Below, in pieces: positions 9,218 to 54,025 of a stretch of 64,000 bases of DNA. The stretch lies in assembly GCA_964016885.1 (NCBI GenBank), contig OZ024751.1, positions 20,708,001-20,772,000 of the forward strand, given 5' to 3'. The notes beneath the pieces were generated by a model. That model was given only the letters and a program-made list of their open reading frames with translations, did not search any database and had not been told where the DNA came from. Each line of letters opens with the position of its first letter. The stretch's first letter is position 1. Origin of the DNA: Eledone cirrhosa. Its lineage: Eukaryota. A program made the translations under genes and the position numbers.

Positions 9218-9631
9218 TATTAAATAAATGGAAAACTATATTTATAAAACCATATTTATTTCATTATATATATTTCGGGGATATCATATTAACAATATGC
9301 TATGCCTTCATCAGACAAAATACAATATAAACAGTTTTATAGATAAATATATTCGACATACCGTAATAAACATCAACTTCATTTGAAGAGGTTTACGCTA
9401 GCAGTCATATTTATCTATAAAACTGTTTATATTGTATTTTGTCTGATGAAGGCATAGCATATTGTTAATATGATATCCCCGAAATATATATAATGAAATA
9501 AATATGGTTTTATAAATATAGTTTTCCATTTATTTAATATTGTAAATATACTCCAAATATTTGTCGAGTGCTTTTATATCAGTTATAAATATTTACTAGT
9601 TGTAACCCAACAATTTTAAATATAACTTTAC
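9218..9631 (+). mobile_element. PLE-derived fold-back element, family A (arms ~9218-9351 / 9407-9540, tail to 9631)
   Basis: Near-perfect ~133-bp inverted arms, each containing an HHR. GAGTGCT at 9566-9572; (TA)n on both sides. Confidence 0.88.
9435..9500 (+). ncRNA. Minimal type I hammerhead ribozyme (mirror copy on minus strand 9257-9322)
   Basis: tattttgt-CTGATGA-aggcatagcatattgttaatatgatatcccc-GAAA-tatata-TA-atgaaata: 8-bp stem I (2 GU), hairpin stem II, palindromic stem III. Confidence 0.88.
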
Positions 9632-9694
9632 ATATATATATATATATATATATATATATATATATATATATATATATATATATATATATATATA

Positions 9695-10312
9695 TATTAA
9701 AATAACAGATTAAAGTTTAAGCAAAGAATCGCTGCATTCACCCTTAATGGGATCTTCTGAAACTAACAAAGTCGATCTGTGAACGCGGAAGTGAATATTT
9801 AAAAAAAAACGTTGCAGCCGGAGGAAGACAGGAAGACGATACTTTGGTTCGTGGGAACGTTCCCTGGCAAAGAACGGGAAAAAACGAATATAATTGTTTC
9901 TACTTTTGGCACAAGGCCATCAATTACCCACTGTATTACTGGTACTTTATTTTATCGACCCCGTAAGGATGAAAGGCAAAGTTAACCTCGGCAGGATTTG
10001 AACTCAGACCGCAAAAGGGACGTAACTATGTTGGAAAGCATGGCGTCCGACCCTCTACCGATACTGCCAATCCACCGTCCTCGAATATAATACGTCATTA
10101 TTTGGAGCGATGAAAAACAATTACACGCAAAGACAAAACCACGTTTATGGTATAAAAGAAGTCGTAGACTAATATTCTATTTGGTGGTTCATGGAGACGT
10201 TCTCTGGCAATGAACGGAAAAAACGAATATAATACGGTTCTTATATATTTGATATATATTTATCCTTATCGAGCCCTCTTTGGATTTTAGTCTTCAAATT
10301 TATTATTATTAC
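9695..10312. mobile_element. Family B PLE-like terminal element interrupted by a SINE
   Basis: Begins with the family B arm (attaaaataacagattaaagtttaagcaaagaatc) and ends with the family B tail (ttatcgagccctcttttggattttagtcttcaaa). Confidence 0.7.
9891..10080 (-). mobile_element. Full-length SINE with TSD cgaatataat
   Basis: A/B boxes on the minus strand; cgaatataat at 9885 and 10082. Confidence 0.9.
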
Positions 10313-10610
10313 TATATATATATATACATATAATATACATTATATATTTCGTTTCGTAACAATACATTATATATATATATACATACATAGGAAAAAGTAT
10401 GACCCCAACGGCAGACCTCAAGCTGTTTCGACGGCTATTTCTGGACCAATATATATATATATATATATATATACATATATATATATATATATATATATAT
10501 ATATATATATATATATATATATATATATATATATATATATATATATATATATATATATATATATATATATATACACATATATATACATATATATATATAT
10601 ATATATAAGT

Positions 10611-11048
10611 ATACGATATTAATAAATGGAAACTATATTTATAAAACCATATTTATTTCATTATATATATTTCAAGGATACCAAGTTACATTATGGTATG
10701 CCTTCATCAGACAAAATACAATATATAACAGTTTTATAAATAGACATTGACGTACCCTTTTAAAAATTGACCGTTGCGTTTGGAGGCCATCAGGATAGTG
10801 GTTTGTTTACTTTAGTAAGTCATAGTGTCTATTTATAAAACTGTTATATATTGTATTTTGTCTGATGAAGGCATACCATAATGTAACTTGGTATCCTTGA
10901 AATATATATAATGAAATAAATATGGTTTTATAAATATAGTTTCCATTTATTAATATCGTATATCTACTCCAAATATTTGTCGAGTGCTTTATATCAGTTA
11001 TAAAAATATTTGCTTGTTGTATCCCAACAATTTAAATAGAACTTTTGC
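10611..11048 (+). mobile_element. Family A fold-back element with two HHRs (10854-10918 +, 10654-10718 -)
   Basis: Arms ~10611-10748 / 10824-10961. tattttgt-CTGATGA-aggcataccataatgtaacttggtatcctt-GAAA-tatata-TA-atgaaata. GAGTGCT at 10982. Confidence 0.88.
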
Positions 11049-12225
11049 ATATATATAAGTATATATATACTGTATATATATACATACATGCATACATATA
11101 TATATATACATATATATTTATATATATATATACACACACACACGTGTGTGTGTAATTGCCAAAGGTTGTCATACCAACCAGGTTGATAAACAACAAGAGG
11201 AGCAACTGTGAAGTGGATAAATGCATGGATTGGCAATATGTGTGTGGTGGTGGTGGTGGTGGTGGTGGTGGTGGGGGGGGGGGGTGTTAGTGGTGATGGT
11301 GATGGTGGTTGTGGTGGTGGTATTGTAGTGGTGGTGATGATGATGGGATTAGTGGTGGTGGTAGTGTTGGTGGTGGTAGTGGTGCTGGTGATTGCGGTGG
11401 TTGTAGTAGTAGTAGTAGTGGTGGTGGTGTTAGTGTTAGTGGTGGTGGTGATGGTGATGGTTGTGTTGGTGGTTGTGGTGGATGTGGTGGTGGTGATGGT
11501 GTTGGTGTTAGTGGCGGTGGTGGTGATGTTGGTGGTTGTGGTGGTGGTATTGTAGTGGTGGCGATGATGATGGTAGTGGTGGTGAATGTGATTGTGGTGG
11601 TTGTGGTAATGGTGGTGTTGGTGGTGACGGTGGAGCCGATGAGGTATGGCTGTTGTTTTGTATCGGAAGAAAACAAAAAAAAATACATTCATTCCTCTCC
11701 TCCATCCACTCTCTTACTCACCCACTCTCCCACTCCCCTACTCACCCACTCCCCTACTCACCCACTATCCCACTCCCCCACTCCCCCACTCACCCAGTCA
11801 CCTACTGCCTCTCTACAATGTAAATATCAGCAATAGCAGGAACAATAACACCACTACTGGTCTCTCAAACTTATAAAAATAACAACCAATCTCCCCTCAC
11901 TCACATAATCAGCACATAATATATTTACTATGTTGTATACTTGTCTAATCAATTTGCTAACCGAATATACCTCGCTGAAGAGACCTAATAAGATTGAAGT
12001 ATGTCACTGGGTCGGTTTTAAGACAAGGTTCACTCCCACAACATGGTTTAAAGTTGTCTGAAAAGTCTTGAATCAGCTCAGGCATATAAGAATTTCTCTG
12101 AGTTATAAATATATTAAACATAGAAATGACTTCTACCGAACTAGAATTGTTTCATTCGTATGAAATCATCGTTTTTGTGTTTTTTCGTGTGTATATATAT
12201 ATATATATATATATATATATATATA

Positions 12226-12597
12226 CGAGGTGTGTCAGAAAAGTTCCAGGACTGATGTCACAAAAGATTTATTTCAAACCCAAACTTAACACTAAGAGTT
12301 TTCTCCTTCAAAGTAATCCCCCTGGAGTATGTAACTGTAATCTTAGCTCTCTGCAGCGATCAAAATCTTTTCTTCATAATTTTATATACATGTCCTCTGT
12401 TTCAGGTCGTCAAGCAATGAGCACAGAGCAACGAACAAACTTGAAGTTTCTGGTACGGTTGGGTAAAAGTCCGTCAGAAGCACTGGGATTGCTGCAGCAA
12501 GTGTATGGAGATGAGACGATGTCACGCTCACGTGTTTTTGAGTGGTGCAAGATGACCCCAGGAGCGGAAGGCCCTCAACAACCAGGACTGAGGTCAA
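12226..12597 (+). mobile_element. Mariner transposon 5' fragment (transposase N-terminal HTH)
   Basis: TA|cgaggtgtgtcagaaaagttcc TIR; ORF segment MSTEQRTNLKFLVRLGKSPSEALGLLQQVYGDETMSRSRVFEW. Confidence 0.88.
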
Positions 12598-12617
12598 ATA
12601 TATATATATATATATAT

Positions 12618-52146: not shown

Positions 52147-52559
52147 ATCTCACTGTCTTCCACAGGAGATTGTTTCTGAGGCAGACAGTGAAATGGATTA
52201 GGATGGAATAGAGGGGGGTCTGATGAAATCAAATACCAGGCATATACTGAGGTTGGAAGGAGTGGGGGTGCGTGTGTGTGTGAGGGGGGGGGGGGCAGTT
52301 AATTCAATGATTTTGCTGACATGTGTTAATTAGGTGGGATGAGTAGGAAAGAATATAAAGAAACTATTTTTAAATATTCGACCCATGTGTGTGTGTGCGT
52401 GTGTATGTATATGTGTGTGTGCGTGTGTATGTATATGTGTGTGTGTGTGTGTGTGTGTGTGACAGCTCACACCTATGCAGGTTTAGCTGGCCTCCTCCAA
52501 GGTATATCTCGTTGGGTAATTTAATGCTGGGGACCCCAGTCCTATCATCTCAATTCTAC

Positions 52560-52690
52560 AGCTGAGTAAACTGGAGCAAAGTGAAATAAAGTGTCTTGCT
52601 CAAGGAAACAACAGCTCAGCCGGTCCGAGAATTGAACTCACAACCTTTCGATTGCAAGCCCAATGCTCTAACCACTAAGCTATGCGCCTT
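52560..52690 (-). mobile_element. tRNA-head SINE (second family)
   Basis: Reverse strand: aggcgcatagcttagtggttagag...gagttcaattctc...ttccttgagcaagacacttta. Confidence 0.75.
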
Positions 52691-53221
52691 CGATGATTAG
52701 GACAGAATATAAATAAACTATTTTTAAATATTGTGCCCATATATGGGTGTGTATATAAAAAGCAACCCAATCCTATAGTCTTGCATCCCCCGCCATATTA
52801 TACATGAGATCGAAAAATCAAAGAGGAGGCGTTTGTGACGGTGGTGCATAAAACAGATCACTGGACTTTCCAATCCCTTATTTCACCTATACCCCCGACA
52901 CCTCCGTAATCATGTGTTTCAGATGACTAATGCTATGAGGTAGTAGTAGTAGTAGTAGTACTAGTGGTAGTAGTAGTAGTAGTAGTAGTAGTGGTAGTAG
53001 TAGTAGTAGTAGTAGTAGGTGTGGTGTATTAATTACATATATATACATATAGCCTCCTAAAAACGTTTATATATATATATACACACGTTTATATATATAT
53101 ATATATATATATATATAAATATATATATATATATATATATATATATATATATATATATATATATATATATATATTTATATATATATATATATATATATAT
53201 ATATATATAAATCTCAACTCA

Positions 53222-53259
53222 CCTTTTGAAAAGCAGAAGAACTGCGAAACCGGTAAAGG
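53222..53259 (+). ncRNA. Minimal type I hammerhead, U3-A8 core variant
   Basis: cctt-TTGAAAA-gcagaagaactgc-GAAA-ccgg-TA-aagg, then AATAAA, in a ~185-bp insert between (TA)n tracts. Confidence 0.78.
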
Positions 53260-53476
53260 AACCAAATAAATATATATATTTTAAAAAAAAATAAGACTTC
53301 AGTTGCATTTTCGATTTCATCCCTTTTTCTTTATACTTCCACTCGTGTAGGACACCTCGGTTATTTTTCATTTTGTAAAAAAAACCTCACTTTCTAATAT
53401 ATATATATATATATATATATATATATATATATATATATATATATATATATATATATATATATATATATATATATAT

Positions 53477-53683
53477 AAACGGAAAAAATGAAACGAAATT
53501 TAATTTCCCACTCTTAGTACGGCTGTTACTTAAATATAAGTATTTTTTATTTTTGTACACGTACATACATATATATTTACAGACGTACAGTAGTATGTAC
53601 ATATATATACATACATGCACACATATATGTACGTATGGATTCACCGAACATTTATTATAATGCTCGATGTGTTTGTACATACT
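53477..53683 (-). mobile_element. Family F 3' fragment (no HHR)
   Basis: Reverse homologue of 41120-41317 with the same terminus at (TA)n. Confidence 0.78.
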
Positions 53684-53754
53684 TATATATATATATATAT
53701 ATATATATATATATATATATATATATATATATATATATATATATATATAATATG

Positions 53755-54025
53755 TAGACGTTCTATTTAAATTGTTGGGATACAACAAGCAAATATTTTT
53801 ATAACTGATATAAAGCACTCAACAAATTATTGGAGTAAAAATACGGGAGCTTCCAACAGTAATGGTCGCCTTCTTTAAGGGTATGTCAATATTTATTTAT
53901 AAAACTGCTCTATATTATATTTTATCTGATGAAAGCACACCATAATTTAACTTGGTGTCCTTGAAATATGTATAATGAAATAAATATGGTTTTATAAATA
54001 TAGTTTCCATTTGTTAATATATCGT
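53755..54025. mobile_element. Family A element (reversed tail + forward arm), HHR 53918-53982 (+)
   Basis: Same HHR as 28076; AGCACTC at 53814. Confidence 0.86.

Follow-up and report, generated by a model that had tools for sequence, protein, structure and literature searches.

The closest described counterparts of the elements studied here are the minimal type I hammerhead ribozymes (HHRs) in the pseudo-long terminal repeats (pLTRs) of Penelope-like elements (PLEs), which Cervera and de la Pena (2014, PMC4209133) report as having a long stem II with a bulged first base and a palindromic stem III, and as occurring in dispersed truncated copies, in opposite-strand dual motifs 100-700 bp apart, and in many families per genome. 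We found the same features in a 64,000-nucleotide stretch of Eledone cirrhosa DNA (assembly GCA_964016885.1, contig OZ024751.1, positions 20,708,001 to 20,772,000, forward strand; hereafter the window, the whole of which was analysed and whose own numbering is used throughout). Its 21 HHR motifs are very probably the ribozyme ends of 14 truncated PLE insertions and of two copies of a retrozyme lacking long terminal repeats (non-LTR retrozyme), clustered in a hotspot rich in (TA)n, and are probably passengers that cut host RNA only rarely. Opposite-strand dual minimal HHRs from truncated PLEs have already been described (PMC4209133), and the kinds of HHR are themselves known; what is new here is a census, an assignment to five lineages (A-E), and a first, weak selection test. 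The genome differs from those in PMC4209133 in its estimated ∼240,000 motifs, versus the 2,000-9,000 reported there with different descriptors, as well as in its stem III inserts, which are mostly of 6 nt and would form an 8-bp dimer helix.

Lineage A fully, and lineages B and E in part, resemble the endonuclease-bearing (EN+) PLEs of the Hydra clade (Craig et al. 2021, PMC8557442) in their C-terminal GIY-YIG domain, their RWK-like, DKT, CxCx5C, CxxC, and CxH motifs, their (TA)n insertion, and their pLTR HHR. They depart from these PLEs in that the HHR and both 3' end points of subfamily A1 lie upstream of the first ATG (+237), and the tail measures ∼90 nt, unlike the 30-40 nt usual for PLEs; an inverted pLTR plus tail is known in PLEs (PMC3846280, PMC8557442). 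Lineage D is like Neptune-like EN+ PLEs in its CX4CxxC linker, its DKSG motif, its YVDD reverse transcriptase (RT) motif, its GIY-YIG domain, and its (TA)n target, whereas its window copy has a non-palindromic stem III and a predicted cut after U. Lineage C is akin to the metazoan non-LTR retrozymes (Cervera and de la Pena 2020, PMC7229834; bioRxiv 10.64898/2026.07.22.740005), being non-coding and AT-rich, carrying one type I HHR in each unit, and occurring both as partial tandems and as long arrays, but its units, of 420-500 bp, contain an internal (TA)n-like tract, and it shows divergent inverted copies as in PLE insertions. The in vitro system of the Anolis Poseidon element PAc (Frangieh et al. 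2024, PMC11167929) offers a further parallel, namely two internal reverse-transcription starts, which would explain the tail, an AT-rich target, and copies apparently made from uncut RNA. The putative starts lie in the 5' untranslated region here and inside the open reading frame (ORF) in PAc.

Hammerhead motifs and the insertions that carry them

An independently written type I descriptor (CTGANGA, stem II, GAAA, 2-13 nt, TH, and a stem I of 4 bp or more) matched the window 21 times, at exactly the sites of the preliminary description, whereas 60 local dinucleotide shuffles of the window gave a mean of 0.03 matches (maximum, 1). The conserved core (C3-U4-G5-A6-N7-G8-A9, G12-A13-A14-A15.1, and U16.1-H17) is complete in all 21, and a stem II hairpin was predicted for 16 of the 17 distinct stem II sequences, with none for 41018+ folded in isolation. 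The stem I pairs quoted earlier (e.g., tattttgt/atgaaata) are present as written, and stem III, which had been called almost always self-complementary, is so in 20 of the 21 (the exception being 15906-); the label "minimal" does not fit 12989-, which has an extended stem I region. At a looser setting, an HHR-like false positive without a stem II fold appears in a (GAT)n tract at 35745 (+).

Choosing matches by their stem I would make a test of its covariation circular. Sites were therefore selected solely for the core and a palindromic stem III, over the window and 87 tiles that were either unselected or flanking. Of the 83 sites so chosen, 69 have a stem I of 4 bp or more; shuffled tiles gave 2.8 core-plus-palindrome matches (with the script version that preceded a length-ordering fix). 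Among the distinct 5'/3' stem I 4-mer combinations, 15 of 29 pair, whereas 10,000 permutations averaged 3.3 and never exceeded 10, which bears out the covariation claimed before. Pairs were counted by script, as a MAFFT alignment misregistered the families with a 4-nt stem III.

The motifs had also been called largely unannotated, and Rfam indeed misses all 21 at its gathering score, at which a scan of the window gave no hammerhead and, as its sole match, a tRNA-like sequence. No hammerhead was found among the 150 of 634 window matches listed by E-value, nearly all of which are microsatellite hairpins, and site-by-site checks listed none for 25503/25693 or 41018. The only Rfam match at 12989- is a weak one to HH9, with 18.6 bits versus a cutoff of 52.

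Self-comparison of the window resolved the 21 motifs into 16 insertions, namely 14 PLE copies and two partial retrozyme tandems. Nineteen HHRs are PLE pLTR ends (18 Hydra-type and one Neptune-like, the latter with RT and GIY-YIG remnants in the window), for which the proposed PLE pLTR origin of type I HHRs with a palindromic stem III stands; it fails for the other two, 12989- and 41018+, which belong to a tandem non-LTR retrozyme with units of 420-500 bp. The lineages in the window number five, rather than the "six or more families" suggested earlier. An inverted arm is present in 11 of the 14 PLE insertions: five are head-to-head inverted pairs with two intact HHRs, in two the partner arm has a mutated core, and four further insertions carry a partial or tail-only inverted arm, with no inverted arm seen in three PLE copies. 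The PLE copies stop in (TA)n ∼50 or 100-180 nt beyond the predicted cut site, except for one that enters an assembly gap.

Natural copies of every PLE lineage have the pLTR HHR downstream of a same-strand ORF encoding RT and GIY-YIG, or its C-terminal part. For subfamily A1, locus L104 shows a tandem of pLTR-HHR, a 737-aa ORF, and a 3' HHR; the best named homolog of this ORF is from Argonauta (39%), and the element is covered by four contig-only runs of unrecorded kind, which cannot show starts, ends, or expression. Similarly, the HHR type of the lineage A insertion at 10608..11048 recurs downstream of a Hydra-type ORF at L284, the A2 HHR downstream of an ORF on the same strand at L287-L289, and the lineage B type of 25306..25793 downstream of Hydra-type ORFs at L291 and L295, while the lineage E HHR is linked at L204 and L211 to the endonuclease part only. 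The lineage D HHR was found in 20 of 29 other RT-selected loci (some matches being inverted copies), and the lineage D protein, with 16,952 first-look candidates in the genome and natural frames of 823-1,029 aa, has its best named homolog in Octopus vulgaris (66%). Pfam scores of the PLE ORF domains are below cutoff. By the clade motif definitions of PMC8557442, the lineage A ORFs contain RWR, DKT, and CxCx5C (all read in the L104 ORF); CxCx5C was also read in the L211, L284, and L289 ORFs and is shown by lineage E, and the lineage D ORF contains CX4CxxC and DKSG. Judged by these motifs and by 33-53% identity to the A1 ORF, rather than by a tree, lineage A (fully) and lineages B and E (in part) appear to match the Hydra clade, and lineage D, assigned by motif only, would fit Neptune. 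Lineage C consists of tandem arrays with periods of 422-502 bp and one HHR per unit, and this arrangement, together with its lack of an ORF, identifies it as a non-LTR retrozyme. At least five further HHR lineages, absent from the window, occur in random tiles (e.g., L063, L118, L264, L272, and L281), with the stem III inserts tgcgca, cctytgg, ccactgg, cg, and caattg.

Individually, the foldback PLEs, which are given without a strand, include the five with two intact HHRs: 9215..9631 (subfamily A1; HHRs 9257-9322 (-) and 9435-9500 (+); a ∼90-nt tail on the right arm; (TA)n flanks), 10608..11048 (lineage A; 10654-10718 (-) and 10854-10918 (+); tail right), 25306..25793 (lineage B; 25454-25508 (-) and 25688-25742 (+); tail left), 27776..28184 (lineage A; 27870-27934 (-) and 28076-28140 (+); tail left, partly deleted), and 47444..47889 (lineage A; 47574-47639 (-) and 47784-47849 (+); tail left). 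A core-mutated partner is found in the foldbacks at 21790..22203 (subfamily A2; intact HHR 21997-22063 (+), partner 21802-21925 (-), tail right) and 25832..26233 (lineage A; intact HHR 25963-26023 (-), partner 26118-26214 (+), tail left), and the A1 foldback at 44534..44875 (HHR 44688-44753 (+)) has an inverted arm, 44538-44608, truncated inside stem II. The inverted arm is mostly tail in the A2 pLTR copy at 47905..48177 (+; HHR 48068-48134) and tail only in the lineage A pLTR copy at 53687..54024 (+; HHR 53918-53982). The 5'-truncated, Neptune-like lineage D element at 15736..17817 (-) has its 3' pLTR HHR at 15868-15910 and an inverted tail copy at 17626-17817; the C-terminal half of its RT and its GIY-YIG domain, at 16108-17628, are interrupted by stops and by a repeat resembling a short interspersed element (SINE-like) at 16788-17008. 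The copies in which no inverted arm was seen are a short solo pLTR copy of a lineage B variant at 15543..15705 (+; HHR 15605-15660), a 5'-truncated lineage A pLTR copy at 20820..21263 (+; HHR 21156-21221; pyrimidine-rich upstream tract, left boundary approximate), and a 5'-truncated lineage E pLTR copy at 41647..42010 (-; HHR 41841-41898; right boundary approximate), whose tail enters the assembly gap. The two retrozyme tandems of lineage C lie at 12598..13379 (-; ∼1.6 units, period ∼497 bp; HHR 12953-12995) and 40718..41317 (+; ∼1.4 units, period ∼430 bp; HHR 41012-41054).

Abundance and the local hotspot

A census of 79 unselected 10-kb tiles gave 67 matches in 790 kb versus 3 in shuffles, that is, one per 12 kb, and a genome-wide estimate of ∼243,000 HHR motifs (about 240,000; bootstrap, 186,000-330,000); the census script also admits a shorter stem III and, in the window, adds the false positive at 35745. 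The great abundance proposed in the preliminary description is thereby upheld, but its figure of one HHR per 3 kb does not hold for the genome, where the measured density is ∼4 times lower and the window is a local hotspot. Direct counts with three mutually exclusive patterns yielded 80,439 + 23,853 + 1,817 = 106,109 matches, the first pattern not requiring stem I (163 matches for its reversed control), and retrozyme lineage C accounts for at least 23,853 motifs. At ∼55 nt each, 240,000 motifs would occupy ∼0.4% of the genome. The 80-kb flanks of the window carry one HHR per 5 kb, (TA)n tracts number 37 per 10 kb in the window versus a tile mean of 21, and HHR count correlates with (TA)n density over the 79 tiles (rho, 0.55).

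Published counts with which we compared the estimate comprise minimal HHRs in Schistosoma (∼2,000), coelacanth (4,000), and Xenopus (9,000), as given in PMC4209133, and HHRs in mussel (∼5,000) and axolotl (126,247), as given in PMC7229834, the axolotl genome being 28 Gb (bioRxiv 10.64898/2026.07.22.740005). Our estimate exceeds all of these, a ranking that is provisional because descriptors differ among the counts. A literature search returned no paper on octopus HHR numbers, although Lunse et al. 2017 or supplements may hold comparable counts. For the giant squid, 235 Rfam hammerhead 1 hits are reported (PMC6962438); since Rfam misses all 21 motifs of the window, Rfam-based cephalopod counts may be far too low.

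Ribozyme cores and host RNA

The proposal that these HHRs cut read-through host transcripts is not supported, given that 13 of the 21 cores are predicted to be antisense-paired, that no host exon was found, and that published activity is low. Those 13 cores sit no more than 350 nt downstream of their own antisense arm, to which 8-11 of their 11 core bases are predicted to pair when 350 nt of upstream context is included. At 41894-, 10 of 11 core bases are also predicted to be paired, but no inverted arm could be found for this motif, which was therefore set aside. Even in isolation, lineage A stem I has a predicted pair probability of 0.00-0.23. Among 120 non-low-complexity ORFs of at least 55 aa, there was no host exon, only transposon-type or repeated C2H2 matches, and the window may still be intronic. 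As for published activity, the results given in PMC4209133 describe no monomer activity and low dimer activity for PLE minimal HHRs, and those in PMC11167929 describe an anole PLE HHR that requires protein for cleavage, is not needed for insertion, and left no cleavage-end reads; PMC7761336 treats the in vivo role of the class as unresolved. Most genomic motifs are predicted to be inactive in host RNA.

The alternative that survives best is that a sizeable fraction of the motifs is active, so that solo sense copies and retrozyme arrays in introns would cleave pre-mRNA, alone or via stem III pairing with retrozyme or PLE RNA, and the HHR load would shape the transcriptome. We regard this as unlikely. 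In its favor, 42 of 44 flank-picked full-length arms have intact cores, and when the arms of each inverted pair were compared, a difference was seen at 4 of 429 core positions versus 74 of 3,457 outside the core (0.9% vs. 2.1%; P ∼0.05), about half the non-core rate (39 of 47 pairs were used, 6 truncated pairs and 2 without an intact arm being dropped). By contrast, the mutated A1 copies number 7 at G5, 6 at G8, and 5 at a stem II G that shares the TGA context and served as a control, against at least 2,843 copies with an intact core, and these genome-wide single-site counts show neither protection nor purging of the core. Eight of the 21 window HHRs have no nearby full antisense arm, and the tandem arrays of lineage C resemble retrozymes shown to self-cleave, as reported in PMC7229834; to these points in favor of activity may be added the depletion of Xenopus retrozymes from introns described in bioRxiv 10.64898/2026.07.22.740005. 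They are opposed by the rarely formed stem I of lineage A, by weak stem III duplexes (-2 to -7 kcal/mol), by the low activity published for minimal HHRs (PMC4209133), and by the lack of a host exon among the ORFs scanned. Equally doubtful is a joint reading in which the densest HHR load on record (∼80 per Mb, ∼18 times that of axolotl, from a dozen or more PLE and retrozyme lineages) would include enough motifs cleaving in vivo, via a palindromic stem III shared with abundant retrozyme and PLE RNA, to make up a transposon-derived layer of RNA cutting across octopus pre-mRNA genome-wide, with the foldbacks providing a large stock of long double-stranded RNA as substrate for A-to-I editing. Separately, both arms of one A1 insertion at G000:C1:133388824-133394986, 6 kb apart, carry the same G5 change, which suggests that an element whose core was already dead had been copied and inserted, in keeping with a ribozyme that transposition does not require.

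Several points weigh against our preferred reading of the motifs as passenger ends of PLE and retrozyme insertions. The G-mutant counts fit neutral decay of a young family, but their power is low and they may conceal a twofold effect. The difference between arms hints at slower core decay, in a test biased to intact cores: each pair was required to have one intact core, exact-core patterns supplied many of the loci, and the annotation of stem II was loose. Neither kinetics nor proteins enter the folding predictions. Four A subfamilies and the 15610 variant are linked to ORFs only via shared flanks of 74-94% identity, no autonomous partner was found for lineage C, and the (TA)n correlation is partly circular, as insertions split their target.

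Ends, inverted arms, and significance

Of 38 A1 arms, with positions counted from C3, 19 terminate at +102, another 16 between +187 and +195, and three broke off at indels; a typical A1 insertion has one arm per 3' end point, the two points lying ∼90 nt apart. The 5' ends lie at -79 to -91 in 15 of the 38 arms, and it is in this region that 151 A1 foldbacks genome-wide are centered, within ∼7 nt of one site. This site is a TCACT initiator-like word, of a kind noted in a rotifer pLTR (PMC3846280), and the 5' ends of short copies coincide ∼90 nt upstream of the core. In a check for a cap-derived G at the 5' hotspot, 39 of the first 100 matches (of 311; counted by eye) had a G before the start, and among 31 junctions at this hotspot, 2 had a clearly non-templated G, 3 a templated one, and 6 were unassignable. 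The arms of A1 pairs differ at recurrent variants in 7 of 19 pairs, always at 1-2 sites (the counts being pseudo-replicated), from which two RNA templates may have served each A1 insertion. Loci with arm differences at variants recurring in other copies are L060, L076, L078, L133, L139, L145, and L149. Since all copies span the cut site, the template RNA would have been uncut or re-joined.

The hairpin could instead be a self-standing mobile unit, either a fixed palindromic element or an ambisense viroid-like RNA with a ribozyme in each polarity. While the common center of the 151 A1 hairpins and the HHRs in both polarities would suit such a unit, the center junctions are heterogeneous, each hairpin has both PLE 3' ends (one per arm), and the arms range from a few dozen bases to several kb, reaching into the PLE ORF; the idea is very improbable, and the fixed-palindrome model was rejected, as the variable arm lengths largely refute it. 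Chance matches in AT-rich microsatellite DNA, or assembly artefacts, can be dismissed outright: although the window is 65% AT and 9% (TA)n and yields one loose-setting false positive at 35745, it has 21 matches versus a shuffle mean of 0.03, the genome has 80,439 pattern matches versus 163 for the reversed pattern, and the arms differ from one another and stop at family-specific points.

Under the favored explanation by PLE and retrozyme insertion, transcription would start from the pLTR promoter (as PMC11167929 and PMC2377424 suggest), and the PLE protein would nick (TA)n and, in the manner of the anole PLE, prime reverse transcription at two internal positions of uncut RNA. Often only the short leader that begins at the pLTR promoter would be copied, once per strand, giving head-to-head hairpins with a one-sided tail. 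Selection on active elements would keep the HHR fold and could account for the stem I covariation, and the intact appearance of inserted copies presumably reflects their youth. During host read-through transcription, the antisense arm would be synthesized first and is predicted to pair with the ribozyme, and solo minimal copies would need a dimer partner or PLE protein. Self-priming on an antisense template has been put forward as an alternative (PMC3846280), and our data do not separate the two models.

The window also contains short hairpins without an HHR, mostly beside (TA)n (303-420, 13393-13538, 19960-20084, 24873-25074, 46949-47080, and 63277-63359), which are possibly tail-only PLE insertions or miniature inverted-repeat transposable elements. 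The SINE-like repeat, of ∼200 bp, occurs in at least nine places (4512-5160, 9876-10081, 16788-17008, 22464-22781, 24261-24457, 34930-35125, 43653-43852, 49474-49675, and 62789-62934), and a tRNA-like sequence at 52617-52689 (-; Rfam, 31.5 bits), with a related copy at 6091-6200, is probably a SINE head. A Mariner-type transposase helix-turn-helix remnant (PF17906) at 12102-12623 (+) is split by the retrozyme copy; repeated segments with C2H2 zinc-finger-like frames (23053-24016, 36291-37440, 57396-57944, and 44006-44257) are probably transposon ends rather than a host gene; and a homogeneous 64-bp tandem array of ∼15 units (∼98% identity) lies at 61376-62332.

This genome is an unusually large sample, with at least 100,000 motifs, young families with ORFs as long as 1,029 aa, and sharply defined 5' and 3' ends, in which PLE ribozyme cutting in cells, host purging of sense intronic copies, and the origin of the inverted pLTR are testable with strong statistics.

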